Assembly (NCBI GenBank): GCA_963708185.1
Contig: OY970195.1
Span: 576,001-640,000 of the forward strand
Length of the DNA: 64,000 bases
DNA from: Candidatus Peregrinibacteria bacterium
Lineage (GTDB): Bacteria; Patescibacteriota; Gracilibacteria; UBA1369
Reading direction: 5' to 3'
The translations under genes and the position numbers were made by a program. Positions 548-6,303 of this stretch are shown here, in pieces. The notes beneath the pieces were generated by a model. It was not told the DNA's origin. It did not search any database and saw only the letters and a list, made by a program, of their open reading frames with translations. The first letter of the stretch is position 1; the number at the start of each line of letters is the position of its first letter.

Positions 548-2884
548 TCAGTAGTTGAAGACGAAATAGGCCCAGTTGGACGGACAGTCCGCGCTCACCG
601 AGAACGATCCGGGGTTGGTCTTGAGAAGGACGTACCCCGTCGTGTAGATCGCTCCGTAGAGATCGGGTTCCAGCTTCGGCGCCGGTCCGGGAGAAGGAGC
701 CGAAGGAGCGCACTTGAAGTAGACGCTCAACGGCCCCGTTCCCGAAGCGAACGTGAAGTCGACGGTCTGTCCGGGAGTGAGGTTGATTGCGACCCCGACA
801 TCGTCATTCGGTGAAGTGTTGACGGTGAAGGGGGTGCTCTGGCAGGTAGTGTCGTCCGATGACGAATCTCCGAGGATGACTCCGTAGTGGAGATGAATCA
901 CCTTGGTACAGGTGCCCGCTTCGATGCAGGTACCCGTGGTAGACGAGCAGGGACCGCCGGCATCGCTGCCGCCGCTTCCTCCCGAACCCGAGCTACCACT
1001 GGAACCGCCGGAACCGCTGGAGCCGGAGCTCCCGCTCGTTCCACCGGAACTGGTACTTCCGGCTGCACCACTGCTTCCGGCAGTGCCTCCGCTTCCGCCG
1101 CTTCCGGCATCTGCAGGAACACACATGTCGGTTGCAATGTCGCAGACCGTACCTGCTCCGCAGGCGCCTCCACAAGGAAGGCCGCCATCAGAGCCGCCCG
1201 CACCACCACTACCGGATGCGCCCCCACTGCCGCCGCTGCCGGCGTCAGATGGGACACACATGTCGGTCATGGTGTCGCAGACGGTGCCAGCTCCGCACTT
1301 TCCGTCACACGGCAAGACGAGGTCGCACAACCCCGTCATCGTGTTACAGACCGTACCGAGACCGCAGTGACCGCCGCAAGGATCTCCCCCGCCGCTGCCA
1401 CTGGACCCCGAACTGCCGCTGGAACCGCTGGAGCCGGAGCTCCCGCTAGATCCAGCACTGCCACTCGTGCCGCCGCTGCCTCCGGATCCGGAGGTGCAGA
1501 CACCCAGGGTGACGTTGCACGTCGTCCCTGGGCCGCATGCGCAGCTGCACGGATCCATGGCCGGGGTGCACGAACCGGCATCGCTGCCGCCCGCGCCTCC
1601 CGTTCCGGATGAACCAGATGAACCGGAAGAGCCGCCGCTGCCGGAGCTTCCCCCGGTGCCGCCGCTGCCTCCAGATCCGCCGGAGATATCGCACAGCCCC
1701 GTCATGGTGTTGCACACCGTGCCGGGGCCGCACTTATTCCCACAGGGATCGGTTCCTCCGCCGGAACCGCCGCTTCCGCCGCCACCCATATCCCGGTAGC
1801 AGTCGTTGTCGACGATTCCGTCGCAGTCGTTGTCGATGTGATCCCCGCACTCCTCCGGGCCCGTAGGCACGCAGATGCAGAGCGGAAGACCGTCATCAAC
1901 CTTGTTGTTGCAGTCGTTGTCGCGACCGTCGCAGACTTCGGGCATGGGCGAGCCCGGGATTGCGTCGCAACGGGTTGCCCAGGGCCCGTCGCAGATCACC
2001 TTGCCGAAGGCAAGGCAATCCCCAACGCCGAGAGTGCAGGGAAGGTTCGTCCCCCAGCCCTCGTCGATGAGGCTGTTGCCGTTGTTGTCGATACCGTCAC
2101 ATTTCTCGGCAACACAGAGCTTCGTGACGGGGTTGCAGACGGTGGTGCTTCCACAGACGCCGCCGCAGGGATCGCTCCCCGAGTCGCCGCCGCTTCCGCT
2201 GTCACCGCCAGTTCCGGAGTCGCCCCCGGTGCCGGCGTCGGACCCGCCCGTTCCTCCATCGCTGGATTCACAGGTGCAGGTCGACGTGTTGCAGTGGGTT
2301 CCCTGGCCGCAGTGGTTGTTGCAGTTGTTGCAACTCCCGCCGTCGGTGTTGGGAACACACTGTCCGTTGAGGCAGGTCGTGCCGGAGCCACAGTGGCCCC
2401 CGCAGTCCCCGCCGCCGTCTCCGCCCGGTACGCATTGCTTTGTATCCGGGTCGCAGACGGTAAGGGGTGGAGCGCAATGCCCTTTGCAGGGATCGCCTCC
2501 GCCGCCGGTCTCGCACTTGCCAGTATCCACGTTGCACGTGGTCCCGGAGGCGCAATGACCGCCGCACGGATCTCCACCACCCGCGACGCACTTGTCGGTC
2601 GCGACGTCGCAGGTGGTTCCGGGAGCGCATTTGCCGTTACAGGGATTGCTCCCCGGCGGCAAACACTTTCCGGTGTTTTGATCGCAGACGGTTCCGGGGC
2701 CACACGTGCCCTCGCAAACGTCCACGCCGCCCTCTCCGGTTCCGGAGCTTCCTCCGGTTCCGGGAGGGCATTGCCCGTTGAGGCAGAAGGGATGGTCTCC
2801 CTCGCTGCTGCATCCCACCGCGATAGCGATGGGGGCGAACAGTGAGAGTACCACCCACTTCCACCGCCTACGCGGTGAATACAT
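548..2884 (-). CDS. Cys/Gly/Ser-rich repeat lipoprotein with MopE-like (CDGxDNxC) motifs, myxobacterial style
   Basis: Signal peptide + AVGC lipobox; many DPCGGxCGxGTxC-like repeats, GGSGG linkers, three ExCDGxDNDCxGxxDxG-like motifs; start set at ATG 2884 because GGAG lies 6 nt upstream. Confidence 0.8.
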   Translation of the reverse strand: MYSPRRRWKWVVLSLFAPIAIAVGCSSEGDHPFCLNGQCPPGTGGSSGTGEGGVDVCEGTCGPGTVCDQNTGKCLPPGSNPCNGKCAPGTTCDVATDKCVAGGGDPCGGHCASGTTCNVDTGKCETGGGGDPCKGHCAPPLTVCDPDTKQCVPGGDGGGDCGGHCGSGTTCLNGQCVPNTDGGSCNNCNNHCGQGTHCNTSTCTCESSDGGTGGSDAGTGGDSGTGGDSGSGGDSGSDPCGGVCGSTTVCNPVTKLCVAEKCDGIDNNGNSLIDEGWGTNLPCTLGVGDCLAFGKVICDGPWATRCDAIPGSPMPEVCDGRDNDCNNKVDDGLPLCICVPTGPEECGDHIDNDCDGIVDNDCYRDMGGGGSGGSGGGTDPCGNKCGPGTVCNTMTGLCDISGGSGGSGGTGGSSGSGGSSGSSGSSGTGGAGGSDAGSCTPAMDPCSCACGPGTTCNVTLGVCTSGSGGSGGTSGSAGSSGSSGSSGSSGSSGSSGSGGGDPCGGHCGLGTVCNTMTGLCDLVLPCDGKCGAGTVCDTMTDMCVPSDAGSGGSGGASGSGGAGGSDGGLPCGGACGAGTVCDIATDMCVPADAGSGGSGGTAGSSGAAGSTSSGGTSGSSGSSGSGGSSGSSGSGGSGGSDAGGPCSSTTGTCIEAGTCTKVIHLHYGVILGDSSSDDTTCQSTPFTVNTSPNDDVGVAINLTPGQTVDFTFASGTGPLSVYFKCAPSAPSPGPAPKLEPDLYGAIYTTGYVLLKTNPGSFSVSADCPSNWAYFVFNY

Positions 2885-3136
2885 CGTTTTCTCCATGTGC
2901 CGGTCGTCACCGGCGTCGAAATTCCTCCGCAGGTGCGATCGTCATCGCAGCGGATTCACACTTTGCGCCGACCGTATTGTCTGGCGCGATGTTCTTGTTG
3001 GTAAACGATCGCGCCATAGTCGGCGACGTTGGTTGAGGTTGAGGTTTTGCATTCCCCGCGGGTGACGGATGTCGAATCCGTAAACCCGCGGGGTGCGCGA
3101 GGTGCCGTCTCAATTCCTTGCGGAAGAGCCGGCGGA

Positions 3137-4276
3137 TCAGAAACGGGCCCCGAGCGTACCGTGGGCATCGATGGCAGCGGCGTAGACGTTCTTGTCGCCG
3201 CCGTCGATGTGGTAGGACTGCATGAACGGCAACTGGGGAGAAGTCCCCAGCCCGAGGTAGACGCCGCGCCTCTCGTCTCCCGTCAACATGAAGTTGACGC
3301 CGAGATTGAGCGCGAGGCCGCCCTCGATGTCGTTCTTGGCGTGGTTGTTCCAGACCGTACCATCGGCCGCCTGGCCGATGTTGGTGTCGGGAACGTGAAT
3401 CCAGCGCATGAACGGGCCACCACCCAGGACGACGTCCACGCGGCTCCCCACCGGGATGCCCGCCTGGAACATGACGCCCCACCAGGTGATGTCCTGCCAC
3501 ACGCTGGGCTCGGTGAGCGGAACGCCCACCACGCCGCGGTTGTCGATGCGGCCGCGGGCATACCCCGCGAACGCTGCAACCTCGAAGGCCGTCTCGTTCA
3601 CCGGACCCACGTGGTACGTGAACTGTCCCTGCACGCCTCCCGCGACATCGAAGCCGCCGGTACGGAAGTACGCCATCGGCTCGAGGTCGAGCCTGGTGCG
3701 TCCGTCCGAACCGAAATGGGCACCCAAAGGCTCGTACCTCGAGTCGGATTCCGGCCTGGTGTAGGAGTCGCCGATGTTGGCCTTGCCGACGAGATCGCTC
3801 TTGTCGGCCTTGCCGTCGAGCTTGCCGTTGACCGCGTCGATGGCCGGCTGTTCCACGAGCTTGTCCTTGCCGTAGACCATCACGGTGAAGGTAGCACCGC
3901 TACCGTCCGTGAAGGTCAGCGTCTTGGACGCACCCGGGTCGACCGCCACCTCGCCCTCGAACTCCGCGAACGCGGAGACGAGGACGACAGTGGTGCCGCT
4001 CTTCGTTTCCGACACCTCGGGCTTCGTCAGCGGAGCCGGGAAATCAGAAGAAGTGACCTTCCCCTGGGTCCCGTTCTTGCAGTACAGGCGAATCCGAAGA
4101 CTCGCCGAACCGCGGACCACCACACCGGAGGTGTTGGTGGTGCCGACGTAGTCCTGGATGCCGTCCTTGAAGATGAGCGGCTGCCGACAATCGGCAGCGA
4201 ACGCGGTCTTGCCCACCACGATGGTGGCGAGCGCGAACACCAACCCGACGAACCCTTTCATGAGCTTGTGAGACAT
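3137..4276 (-). CDS. Secreted protein with probable C-terminal outer-membrane beta-barrel
   Basis: Signal peptide ending AFA-A; alternating beta-strand pattern in C-terminal half; ends AIDAHGTLGARF (terminal Phe); GAAAGGTG SD-like 6 nt before ATG 4276. Confidence 0.7.
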   Translation of the reverse strand: MSHKLMKGFVGLVFALATIVVGKTAFAADCRQPLIFKDGIQDYVGTTNTSGVVVRGSASLRIRLYCKNGTQGKVTSSDFPAPLTKPEVSETKSGTTVVLVSAFAEFEGEVAVDPGASKTLTFTDGSGATFTVMVYGKDKLVEQPAIDAVNGKLDGKADKSDLVGKANIGDSYTRPESDSRYEPLGAHFGSDGRTRLDLEPMAYFRTGGFDVAGGVQGQFTYHVGPVNETAFEVAAFAGYARGRIDNRGVVGVPLTEPSVWQDITWWGVMFQAGIPVGSRVDVVLGGGPFMRWIHVPDTNIGQAADGTVWNNHAKNDIEGGLALNLGVNFMLTGDERRGVYLGLGTSPQLPFMQSYHIDGGDKNVYAAAIDAHGTLGARF

Positions 4277-4786
4277 GTTTTTCACCTTTCATCTGACTGT
4301 TGAACTCTTGTGTCCGAGCCGCGCTATGGGAGCAACGAACCGGACGAACCTATGATACTCCGCCTTATGGGCGGTGGCCGCCTACGGCCCAACTTTTCCT
4401 TTGAATCGTAAGGCCGATACGGCCTAAACCGCCCGCCACCACAGCGGAGCGGTTCGCCCTTAGTGCATGTAACTACCCTTTCGGGGCTGCATGCACATAG
4501 GGCCGAGGCGGTGGTGTGGGCGCCTCTTGCGGAAGCGCTTCATACTACCTTTTCCTTTCCTCTACCCTCTTGCTCTTACCTTAACTCACCGAAGTGTGAG
4601 TATGTCGGCGAACTCGAGAGCTCATAACTACTCTCCAGGGCTGGGCCCTATTAAGCAGACCCGTCAAACGGACCTGCAGAAAAGCAGCTTTGAGCTCTCG
4701 AGTCACCAAAAAAATTTTAGAATGTTTTGTACACACGAACTTGCGTTGGCCCGCTCTTAAGGAGCTAGCACACTCGCTTCTTCGTG

Positions 4787-4802
4787 TTTCATGAACCGGA
4801 TT
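4787..4802. repeat. 5' arm of long-range inverted repeat (pairs with 427-442)
   Basis: 16-bp perfect complement to cassette trailer. Confidence 0.9.
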
Positions 4803-4812
4803 TTCAAAGATC
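4801..4812 (-). promoter_or_regulatory. boxA-like antitermination motif
   Basis: Minus strand GATCTTTGAAAA resembles rrn boxA (E. coli TGCTCTTTAACA). Confidence 0.5.
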
Positions 4813-4985
4813 CATCAGTACAGGAAGCCCAAACAAACAATTTCGTTCTGTTTGAGCTTGTAAAAGACACTTAAAATCGAGCCCTTCCAGCCTTTTCCTT
4901 TGCCGGAATCAGTAGCCCGATGTTCAATTTGTGTCTTTTATAAGCCCAAAAGAGTTGAGGGGTAGGTAAATTTTTAAAGGAAGTA

Positions 4986-5015
4986 ATTATAACCACAAAA
5001 GTCTATTTTTGTCAA
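4986..5015 (-). promoter_or_regulatory. Sigma70 promoter of cassette 1
   Basis: TTGACA (5015-5010), 18 nt, TATAAT (4991-4986). Confidence 0.85.
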
Positions 5016-5169
5016 TACATTTCGGGTCATATTTCTCCCTTTACCCTCGTAAATGCTTTTTGGCTTCGGGTATTACAAAACTGCGGTTTGAAATTTTGAA
5101 AAATTATGATGCAATCTTGAAGAGATCTTCTCTTTCGCGTGAAAGCTATTTTTGGGCTACAATACAATC

Positions 5170-6303
5170 ATGAAGCAAACACCTCATTTTGTGATTTGCG
5201 GAAATTACGGCGCCACCAACATTGGTGACGAAGCTATTTTGCAAAGCATTTTGCAGTTTTGCCGCCACGCTTTTCCGCATGCGGACATTACCGTCATCAG
5301 TTCGAATCCCGCACGCACCGCCGAGCAGTACGACGTCAAAACCGTTCCGATGATGCCCGCTGGCCTTCGCTCCTACGTCAAAGCTTTTTTCAGCAGAAGC
5401 ATGCGAAAAACACTCCATGCCTATAAACGCGCCGACGCCGTCATTTTTGGCGGAGGAGGCCTTTTTACCGATGAAAGACCACACGCCATTTTCATCTGGC
5501 TCATGCAAATTCTTCCCGCTTTCCGATATAAAAAGCCAGTAATGAGTCTCGGTCAAAGCGTCGGTCCGCTCATGAACAGATGGAGTCGCTGGGTCGTGGG
5601 GAAAATTTTCAGGAAAATGAAAATCGTTACCGTCCGCGATGAAGCCTCGCAACTGCTGCTCAGAAAACTGAACGTCCGCAACATCCACGTTTTGCCTGAC
5701 CCTGTTTTTGGCTTTCACCTGAGGAAATCACACGAATCTCCAGCCCCACGCGAACGCAAACCCTACATTGTTTTTTCGTTGAGGCCGTGGATCAGAAATG
5801 CCGAAAAAATCCGCGGAATTCTCGCGCAATTCGTTGACTGGATTTTTGAAACGTACCATCTGCGCACCTACTTCGTTCCCTTCCAGTCGCTCCATGATGA
5901 TGACGAAAATGAATGTCTCCAGGTTCTTCTCAAACTGGAACATCGAAGCGTCTGCGAGGTTCTTTCGCACAATGAAGAGATGCGTGACACCCTCAAATTG
6001 ATGGAAGAGTCCACGGCGGTTATCGGGATGCGTCTTCATTCCATTATTTTTTCTGCGATAACGCATACCCCGTTTTTAGCGCTTTCCTACAGCCTAAAAG
6101 TAGCAGAGGTTGCCAAACAGCTTGGGATGGAAGACTTCCTGGACGAGTACCGGTTCGTGGATCTGGATACGTTGAAAAAGAAATTCGAAAAACTTTTCAG
6201 TGAGCGAACGCACGTGGAAAAATCTCTTGAGGAAATGCATAAAGAGCTGGAGCACAAAACCGAACAGTATGCTCACATGATCAAACAGCTTGTGGATGCC
6301 TGA
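5170..6303 (+). CDS. csaB: Polysaccharide pyruvyl transferase (CsaB-like)
   Basis: GNYGATNIGDEAI, FGGGGLF, GQSVGP, TVRD, GMRLHS motifs. Confidence 0.85.
   Translation: MKQTPHFVICGNYGATNIGDEAILQSILQFCRHAFPHADITVISSNPARTAEQYDVKTVPMMPAGLRSYVKAFFSRSMRKTLHAYKRADAVIFGGGGLFTDERPHAIFIWLMQILPAFRYKKPVMSLGQSVGPLMNRWSRWVVGKIFRKMKIVTVRDEASQLLLRKLNVRNIHVLPDPVFGFHLRKSHESPAPRERKPYIVFSLRPWIRNAEKIRGILAQFVDWIFETYHLRTYFVPFQSLHDDDENECLQVLLKLEHRSVCEVLSHNEEMRDTLKLMEESTAVIGMRLHSIIFSAITHTPFLALSYSLKVAEVAKQLGMEDFLDEYRFVDLDTLKKKFEKLFSERTHVEKSLEEMHKELEHKTEQYAHMIKQLVDA

Follow-up and report, generated by a model that had tools for sequence, protein, structure and literature searches.

The 64,000-nt window analysed here (positions 576,001 to 640,000 of contig OY970195.1, assembly GCA_963708185.1, Candidatus Peregrinibacteria bacterium) carries, in the 893-nt gap (4277-5169) that separates the divergent genes 4276..3137 (-) and 5170..6303 (+), a densely folded RNA element of about 670-700 nt that appears to be encoded on the minus strand ahead of gene 4276..3137, hereafter P0001. 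Our favoured reading, to which we give about an even chance of being right, is that this RNA is a giant 5′ leader that works in cis on an envelope operon, as a stabiliser of the message or a setter of its expression. The source genome is a single contig of 1,437,033 bp that is 99% complete. All coordinates are those of the window.

The promoter of the element is a sigma-70 site on the minus strand (5015..4986) that matches TTGACA-18 nt-TATAAT at 12 of 12 positions and predicts a transcription start near 4980 (-). Both hexamers are invariant in all five genomes of the genus (alignment A1), and the 12/12 promoter was recovered at each of the three orthologous loci scanned. Perfect sites of this kind number six genome-wide, against none for a reversed-pattern control; the other five stand 22-113 nt ahead of an open reading frame (ORF), and the leader promoter stands ~700 nt ahead of its own. 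The intervening space is filled by the RNA, as expected from the first-pass annotation, which had called the region a structured leader. No terminator-like site was detected within 4100-5300 (shuffles average 1.6) and no sense-strand promoter was found between RNA and ORF in any of the four genomes; the sole sense-strand terminator-like match among the orthologs is a hairpin within domain 3 of one of them (G002), which has a poor T tail.

The strand was assigned from the structure as well as from the promoter. G·U pairs, which the opposite strand cannot form, account for 60 of the 536 cells of the consensus structure; 513/536 cells are paired on the minus strand compared to 463/536 when the same structure is read on the plus strand. 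Furthermore, the minimum free energy (MFE) of the promoter-sense strand lies 32-42 kcal/mol below that of its complement in all four orthologs, with fold z-scores of -7.6 to -11.5 against -5.4 to -8.6. Judged by these comparisons, the structured RNA is encoded on the minus strand and leads gene 4276..3137, not the pyruvyl-transferase gene at 5170. As far as sequence can tell, the earlier annotation was right to speak of a leader, but it left the strand open or mixed it up, giving in plus-strand coordinates and letters the helices of a minus-strand RNA. That a plus-strand RNA exists instead, tied to the pyruvyl-transferase gene as leader or antisense, we find hardly credible: the plus strand does fold better than shuffles (z -6.7), as would any complement of a structured RNA, but it forfeits the 60 G·U cells and the 32-42 kcal/mol in every ortholog, no plus-strand promoter precedes 4280, the only promoter-like site on that strand (5139-5168) lies beyond the region, and our covariance models score 35-45 bits on that strand compared to 114-212 bits on the minus strand (a comparison that favours the modelled strand by construction).

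Folding energies were next compared to those of dinucleotide shuffles, and the 701-nt stretch proved more stable on both strands, in agreement with the earlier proposal of a genuine fold: -296.4 kcal/mol compared to -220.7 +/- 8.9 for the minus strand (z -8.55) and -255.1 kcal/mol compared to -204.4 +/- 7.6 for the plus strand (z -6.71), with none of 20 shuffles folding as well on either. As the region is compositionally mixed (5′ half 44% GC, 3′ half 57% GC), the halves were also folded separately, and each is structured independently of the other (minus strand, z -9.6 for the 5′ half and -5.7 for the 3′ half; plus strand, -5.2 and -3.6). Control stretches gave z-scores of +0.1 and +0.9 in the pyruvyl-transferase gene, -1.6 and +0.9 in the promoter gap, -2.2 and -3.6 in the P0001 gene, and -5.9 and -1.4 in a repetitive GC-rich lipoprotein gene further downstream.

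Conservation was assessed on four full-length sequences and one partial sequence (in the fifth genome a contig end truncates the locus), and all five come from a single syntenic genus. By BLAST, the stretch is present in all four other genomes of the genus and in none of 36 genomes of other genera, and it is single-copy in its genome. Over aligned columns, the RNA is 68-75% identical between pairs of genomes, well above the third codon positions of five flanking genes in the same pairs (45-56%) and above the P0001 gene itself (46-53% nucleotide and 29-36% protein identity). It is about as conserved as the genes for L19 and trigger factor, which are 75-78% identical at nucleotide level, and far more so than the gene that it precedes. 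This conservation is not that of a protein: variable columns are spread evenly over positions modulo 3 (52/50/47, no codon periodicity), 29 of 43 gap runs are not a multiple of three, and no frame remains open, and on these grounds a small ORF or coding region was excluded.

The same comparisons bear on whether the region is functional at all. A mobile-element relic, a cluster of palindromes kept at the DNA level, or chance structure in a spacer of mixed composition could be imagined, in that the region straddles a GC boundary (44%/57%) where an island of 63-69% GC begins and a repetitive GC-rich coding control also reaches z -5.9. We nevertheless consider a non-functional origin very improbable, given that the RNA is conserved well beyond third codon positions, shows compensatory changes, a strand-specific G·U asymmetry and structure in both halves, and has a single genomic copy with no phage or plasmid match, tandem repeat, tRNA-like element or repeat common to the genes. 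Several more specific candidates were likewise set aside: a mobile-element origin (no match in phage or plasmid collections), elements resembling tRNA or tmRNA and tandem repeats (the region has none), and a template of a diversity-generating retroelement (no repeat common to RNA and genes). A divergent RNase P RNA was considered on account of GAGGAAAGG, which resembles the P4 strand, and was rejected; the subdomain that holds this stretch is absent in G002, and genuine RNase P RNA, like tmRNA, is located elsewhere in the genome. No 6S RNA was detected in the genome.

The consensus structure, built from the four full-length sequences, comprises 145 pairs with 95.7% of cells paired, and the RNA as a whole has at least 20 helices, 19 in the consensus and one more ahead of the ribosome-binding site (RBS), which sustains the earlier description of a multi-domain RNA. 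Changes on both sides of a pair occur at 10 pairs, compared to 1-2 in each of six slid controls (over which the structure has an advantage, having been derived from the same sequences as tested) and to a mean of 4.9 in shuffles, none of 500 of which reach 10. With four or five close relatives, we regard this covariation as supportive and not statistically decisive. Length varies only at hairpin tips, several of which are GNRA loops (alignments A1 and A2). Every helix listed in the first-pass annotation was located at its given position, as detailed below.

Read from its 5′ end on the minus strand, the RNA begins with a variable, pyrimidine-rich segment (YYCCUU..., 4980..4951). A tentative helix, H1, would pair CCUUUA (4980..4975) with UAAGGG (4462..4457); it is 95.7% paired and carries no double-sided changes, and we call it tentative because single-sequence folds pick different partners in each genome. 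Domain 1 (4954..4788) consists of the long hairpin H2-H5 (4950..4931 with 4870..4851), the segments B1, B2 and B3 discussed below, and the hairpin H7/H8 (4822..4792), which bears the invariant loop UCUUUGAAAAU. Seventeen of the 18 pairs of H2 are without variation, and this helix is the one noted earlier at 4861-70/4931-40 (inverted repeat I2). The octamer UUCAUGAA is a perfect and invariant palindrome; a role as kissing loop was put aside, half of it being paired in H7 of the consensus fold. In each of the five genomes, an invariant AUG-AAA within GUUCAUGAAA (4799..4792, -) starts a frame of just 3-11 codons that lacks an RBS. A leader-peptide attenuator was accordingly rejected: this sole shared AUG has no Shine-Dalgarno sequence, its frames span those 3-11 codons, and codon periodicity is absent.

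Between domains 1 and 2, this genome alone carries an extra hairpin, a 73-nt insertion (4787..4715, -; alignments A1 and A2) with a stem of 4787..4781 and 4739..4733, which also appears in the folds of this genome's region on both strands. The helix that had been reported at 4733-39/4781-87 (ACACGAA/TTCGTGT) is therefore present, but it belongs to this insertion and not to the conserved structure. In place of the insertion, G002 and G001 have a hairpin larger by ~40 nt between B2 and B3. Such insertions and deletions among genomes amount to natural data on the minimal RNA.

Domain 2 (4707..4584, -) is dominated by the 28-pair helix H9 (4707..4679 with 4636..4607), which has a length-variable tip and is followed by the 6-pair hairpin H10 (4601..4584). 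In H9, 21 of 28 pairs never vary, five vary one-sidedly and one is compensatory (C-G/U-A); the perfect 13 bp pointed out earlier at 4612-24/4691-4703 form its core and that of inverted repeat I1. Next comes a variable subdomain of 115 nt (H11-H14, 4577..4463, -), which three of the four full-length orthologs have and for which G002 has 5 nt instead. Within it lie AGCAAGAGGGUA, with which B1 can pair at long range, a stretch rich in purines (GAGGAAAGGA), and a GNRA-capped hairpin (4496..4463), and three compensatory pairs fall in H13 and H14 together. The hairpin corresponds to the previously noted helix 4463-69/4490-96 (inverted repeat I3), whose cap reads CCCCGAAAGGG in the minus-strand reading.

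Domain 3 (4462..4334, -) nests H15 (CGAAC/GUUCG), H16 (GCUCCGY/RGCGGAGU) and H17 (GGGCGGU/ACCGCCC) around two or three variable hairpins. These are the three nested helices that the earlier reading had given as 4345-50/4451-56 (CGAACC/GGTTCG), 4358-63/4444-49 (CTCCGC/GCGGAG) and 4369-75/4428-34 (GGGCGGT/ACCGCCC). The last hairpin, H20 (GUCCGG...CUCGGAC, 4345..4312, -), has a variable inner stem and no U run after it; all four orthologs keep its outer stem, in which G003 exchanges one C-G for U-A. An unstructured linker (4311..4277, -) then leads to the gene, with a Shine-Dalgarno-like AAGGUG (4288..4283) 6 nt ahead of the ATG. Linker and start region show local fold z-scores of +0.76, -0.66, -2.41 (G003) and +0.89 in the four genomes; the RBS region is thus not locally structured in three of four.

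A further feature of domain 1 is a three-way choice of pairing. Segment B2 (AAGCUCAAAC, 4859..4850) can pair with B1 (UUUUGGGCUU, 4951..4942) at a predicted -10.3 to -12.6 kcal/mol in five of five genomes, and with B3 (GUUUGGGCUU, 4834..4825) at a near-equal -10.2 to -14.5 kcal/mol, again in five of five. These are the two pairings that the first-pass annotation had seen in GAGCTT (4854-59) and the AAGCCC copies at 4825 and 4942, and both are retained in every genome. B1 can in addition pair with a distal purine block after domain 2 (-8.4 to -14.7 kcal/mol, four of four genomes); this duplex, possible when B2:B3 forms, is the long-range closing helix proposed earlier at 4562-77/4950-66, which is indeed in the MFE fold of this genome but does not belong to the ground state predicted for each of the other three. 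In partition-function folding, B2:B3 reaches 0.999 in this genome (G000), and B1:B2 reaches 0.84-0.99 in the other three. The near-invariance of H2 (17/18 pairs) would be explained if its segments must suit two partners.

These observations raise the question of whether the RNA is a sensing leader (a riboswitch, thermosensor or protein-titrated element) that exchanges B1:B2 for B2:B3 plus B1:distal to control the envelope operon. The near-equal energies of B1:B2 and B2:B3 in all five genomes, the B1:distal option in four of four, an occupancy predicted to flip between orthologs, and the account that dual partners would give of unvarying helices all speak for such a device. Yet there is no intrinsic terminator, the RBS lies ~400 nt from the switch segments and is not locally sequestered, no known aptamer is matched (Rfam, E<=10), the genome has no CsrA to bind the GGA-rich loops, the AUG-AAA frame after B3 is 3-11 codons long with no RBS and only Met-Lys shared, and the alternative pairings may be mere steps of co-transcriptional folding. 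We therefore consider a sensing leader improbable. The switch suggested earlier is in this sense conserved as an alternative pairing, which may reflect either a regulated switch or a co-transcriptional folding pathway. A sponge of the CsrB/RsmZ type was rejected separately; GGA-rich purine loops are present, but CsrA (PF02599) was not found in the 99%-complete genome.

In the favoured reading, the arrangement of promoter, RNA and gene is that of a 5′ leader. Briefly, an RNA of ~670-700 nt would be transcribed on the minus strand from the invariant promoter (5015..4986), and the transcript would run on into the P0001 gene (4276..3137) and probably then into the lipoprotein gene. Its three conserved domains and one dispensable subdomain would end ~35 nt ahead of an exposed RBS, and the compact fold would shield the 5′ part of a very strongly transcribed envelope mRNA from RNase J and RNase Y, thereby setting expression. 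Competition among B1, B2, B3 and the distal block would guide co-transcriptional folding or toggle the leader between two states. Of this account, the fold, its strand, a conservation beyond the neutral level, the order of promoter, leader and gene, and the lack of a coding signal are shown, whereas transcription, its passage into the gene and any effect on stability or expression are inferred. The decay enzymes of the genome are consistent with this proposal, with one match to RNase J, two to RNase Y, and no RNase E/G found. The RNA-binding domain of Rho was not found in the genome either, and premature termination of a long untranslated stretch by Rho is hence not to be expected. In a published account (PMC7509114), 5′-proximal structure is described as stabilising bacterial mRNAs, ompA included, and as doing so in RNase J/Y-type decay.

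Several observations weigh against the leader reading. A 670-nt RNA with near-invariant helices far exceeds the need of shielding, known 5′ stabilisers being one or two hairpins. The unvarying pairs of H2 (17/18) and H9 (21/28) point instead to sequence-specific contacts, tertiary structure or multiple partners, which a functional non-coding RNA (ncRNA) would explain no less well. Variation is seen across the first ~30 nt, and the 5′-terminal pairing that a classic stabiliser should have is inconsistently predicted across single-sequence folds; the 115-nt variable subdomain is dispensable in G002. The fold z-score of the 3′ half (-5.7) is equalled by a coding control (-5.9) and is not exceptional alone, so that support for this half comes from conservation and covariation. 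Finally, because all sequences come from one syntenic genus, the linkage to the gene is not independent among them and the covariation stays below significance.

The main rival is a stand-alone or processed large ncRNA of a new class, in the size range of OLE, ROOL and GOLLD, that acts in trans or as a ribonucleoprotein (RNP) and whose gene merely lies upstream of the envelope operon or whose product is cut from the operon transcript. The RNA has ~650 nt and no fewer than 20 helices, with variable tips capped by GNRA loops and with long invariant blocks; it is conserved far beyond the adjacent gene, is single-copy and has its own consensus promoter. Its core closes with a hairpin ~35 nt before the RBS and gives way to a variable unstructured linker, as a separable module would, and it surpasses 500 nt with 145 consensus pairs (10 of them double-sided) and no coding signal. 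However, in the four genomes there is neither a 3′ terminator-like site nor a promoter for the downstream gene, Rfam returned no match, and the RNA is confined to one genus, compared to many genera for known ornate RNAs. We regard a large ncRNA of this kind as a serious but unlikely explanation. Slightly more doubtful still is the bolder proposal that the RNA founds a new large ornate class, the first from the candidate phyla radiation, with near-invariant helices that would reflect a defined tertiary or quaternary architecture or an RNP. It would then work with an unusual envelope module, the OmpX-like barrel and the Cys-repeat lipoprotein encoded behind it in a bacterium with no detectable BamA, much as OLE does with its membrane partners and unlike a passive 5′ stabiliser.

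To delimit the distribution of the RNA, covariance models were built for domain 3 (R1), domain 2 (R2) and domain 1 (R3). Among 36 family genomes, R1 had matches in four, each from the same genus and with one copy at 112-130 bits; among 151 sampled class genomes, it had a match in one, the window's own. Of the 151 sampled order genomes, R2 and R3 each had matches in three, again from the same genus only; R2 scored 114-137 bits on the minus strand compared to 35-40 on the other. Five weak R3 matches beyond the genus (15-22 bits) were judged to be chance, short unrelated hairpins (alignments of two of the five were inspected). A metagenome scan with the invariant loop pattern returned nine stretches, none matched by R1 and with BLAST similarity limited to the 23-30 nt of the pattern; a scan of genome contigs with an invariant 17-mer returned at least 120 stretches, nearly all from unrelated GC-rich taxa and judged to be chance. 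At gathering level, Rfam 15 found only two tRNAs in the whole window, both outside the region, and a scan of 4100-5300 on both strands gave no match at E<=10 (OLE RF01071, GOLLD, ROOL, HEARO, raiA, RNase P, tmRNA, 6S, riboswitches, ribozymes and introns included), in line with the first-pass annotation, which had recognised no known family. On the strength of these searches, the RNA is a new family of narrow distribution, restricted to one genus of Peribacteria. No densely structured RNA of more than 500 nt from Peregrinibacteria or Peribacteria was found described in the literature searched.

We then examined the genes on either side. P0001 (4276..3137, -) encodes a secreted protein of 379 aa that combines a signal peptide and a beta-sandwich with a disordered K/D-rich linker and a predicted C-terminal barrel ending in Phe. 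Its AlphaFold2 model has a mean predicted local distance difference test score (pLDDT) of 65.6, rising to 75-90 across residues 193-378, which are modelled as a long-stranded beta-barrel. The nearest Foldseek structures are Ail, OmpX, the OmpA transmembrane domain, NspA and OmpW (E 8e-7 to 1e-4, target-normalised template-modelling score 0.57-0.69), and the C-terminal domain is accordingly predicted to be an OmpX/OmpA-like barrel. P0001 has no Pfam or NCBIfam family. Its relatives are confined to the same genus among 36 family genomes; four proteins at E<=0.001 were obtained among 8000 candidates scored (database of 5.8 billion), and three closer relatives, on other contigs (P0004-P0006), show 40-47% identity. 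RNA and P0001 gene co-occur in the same order at all four complete loci. The lineage is usually regarded as being without an outer membrane, and Omp85/BamA (PF01103) was not found in the 99%-complete single-contig genome.

The second gene, P0002 (2896..548, -), encodes a 782-aa lipoprotein (lipobox AVGC) with Gly/Ser linkers and many Cys-rich repeats of the CGxxCGxGTxC type, in which a MopE-like metal-binding motif was seen below threshold (E 2.3e-5, 25 bits compared to a cut-off of 27). A 401-nt piece of its mRNA strand has a fold z-score of -5.9. A 4-kb island (~550-4560) made up of two or three envelope genes and the RNA's 3′ half has 63-69% GC, compared to 45-50% in the flanks. The GC-rich island was seen in all four genomes of the genus (also at L146, L147 and L148), its proteins being 29-36% identical. 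That its GC content is high despite this low protein identity indicates maintenance over a long divergence, not recent transfer.

On the other side of the gap, the neighbour at 5170..6303 (+) is a polysaccharide pyruvyl transferase (Pfam E 5.2e-48). In Gram-positive bacteria, pyruvyl transferases modify the wall polymer that anchors surface-layer proteins, and this neighbour is a hint of a cell-surface module that takes in the whole locus. Elsewhere in the genome, the other five perfect promoters (G000:C1 at 224482, 423861, 781349, 998724 and 1305757) precede ORFs of which at least three start with a signal-peptide, lipoprotein or membrane-anchor-like sequence; perfect consensus promoters thus seem to be kept for envelope proteins.

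Bacterial RNAs longer than 500 nt with such a density of conserved structure are few, and the element described here gains interest under either of the two readings that treat it as a large functional RNA. Should it be a leader, it would be several times the size of classic 5′ stabilisers and would commit 0.05% of a reduced 1.4-Mb genome to the control of one envelope operon; should it be a stand-alone RNA, it would offer a new target for structure determination. Either way, the RNA marks the genes behind it as probably encoding some of the surface components that this uncultured lineage expresses most strongly.

Among known systems, the 5′ untranslated region (UTR) of E. coli ompA, a growth-rate-regulated mRNA stabiliser, offers one of the closest parallels, as a structured leader before the gene of a small outer-membrane-type barrel for which abundance is expected. 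The E. coli ompA element has ~130 nt and two hairpins and shows neither sequence nor Rfam similarity to the RNA here, in which at least 20 helices span ~700 nt; decay is by RNase E there and would be by RNase J/Y here, and a 5′-terminal hairpin is not clearly present here. Stabilisation of ompA mRNA by 5′ structure is described as independent of translation efficiency in PMC7509114, in which 5′-proximal structure or ribosome-binding-like purine tracts are also said to block the decay of aprE and ermC mRNAs. The aprE and ermC leaders resemble the present case in their RNase J/Y-type decay, and purine-rich GGA/GGAGG-like tracts recur in loops here. A Shine-Dalgarno-like 5′ stabiliser is likewise known from cryIIIA. 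These Gram-positive stabilisers (aprE, ermC, cryIIIA), however, are tens of nucleotides long, and nothing of such size or conservation is known among them.

In size and complexity, the RNA is more reminiscent of OLE (RF01071), ROOL and GOLLD, the ~600-nt class with many conserved helices, variable tips and unknown biochemical function; OLE is also encoded beside membrane-protein genes. It differs from them in having no cmscan match at E<=10, in belonging to another phylum, in being found in one genus where they occur in many, and in having its own promoter and no 3′ terminator, which is the layout of a leader. A recent report (PMC12286853) presents OLE, ROOL and GOLLD as large ornate bacterial RNAs that form ordered RNA-only assemblies. 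With riboswitch and attenuator leaders, the RNA has in common its cis location, its structured nature and its mutually exclusive pairings, but it is five to ten times larger and lacks a known aptamer, a terminator, a sequestered RBS and a conserved leader peptide. Ultimately, long structured 5′ leaders are the kind of RNA to which the element stands closest, and its size and ornateness bring it nearest to RNAs of the OLE type.

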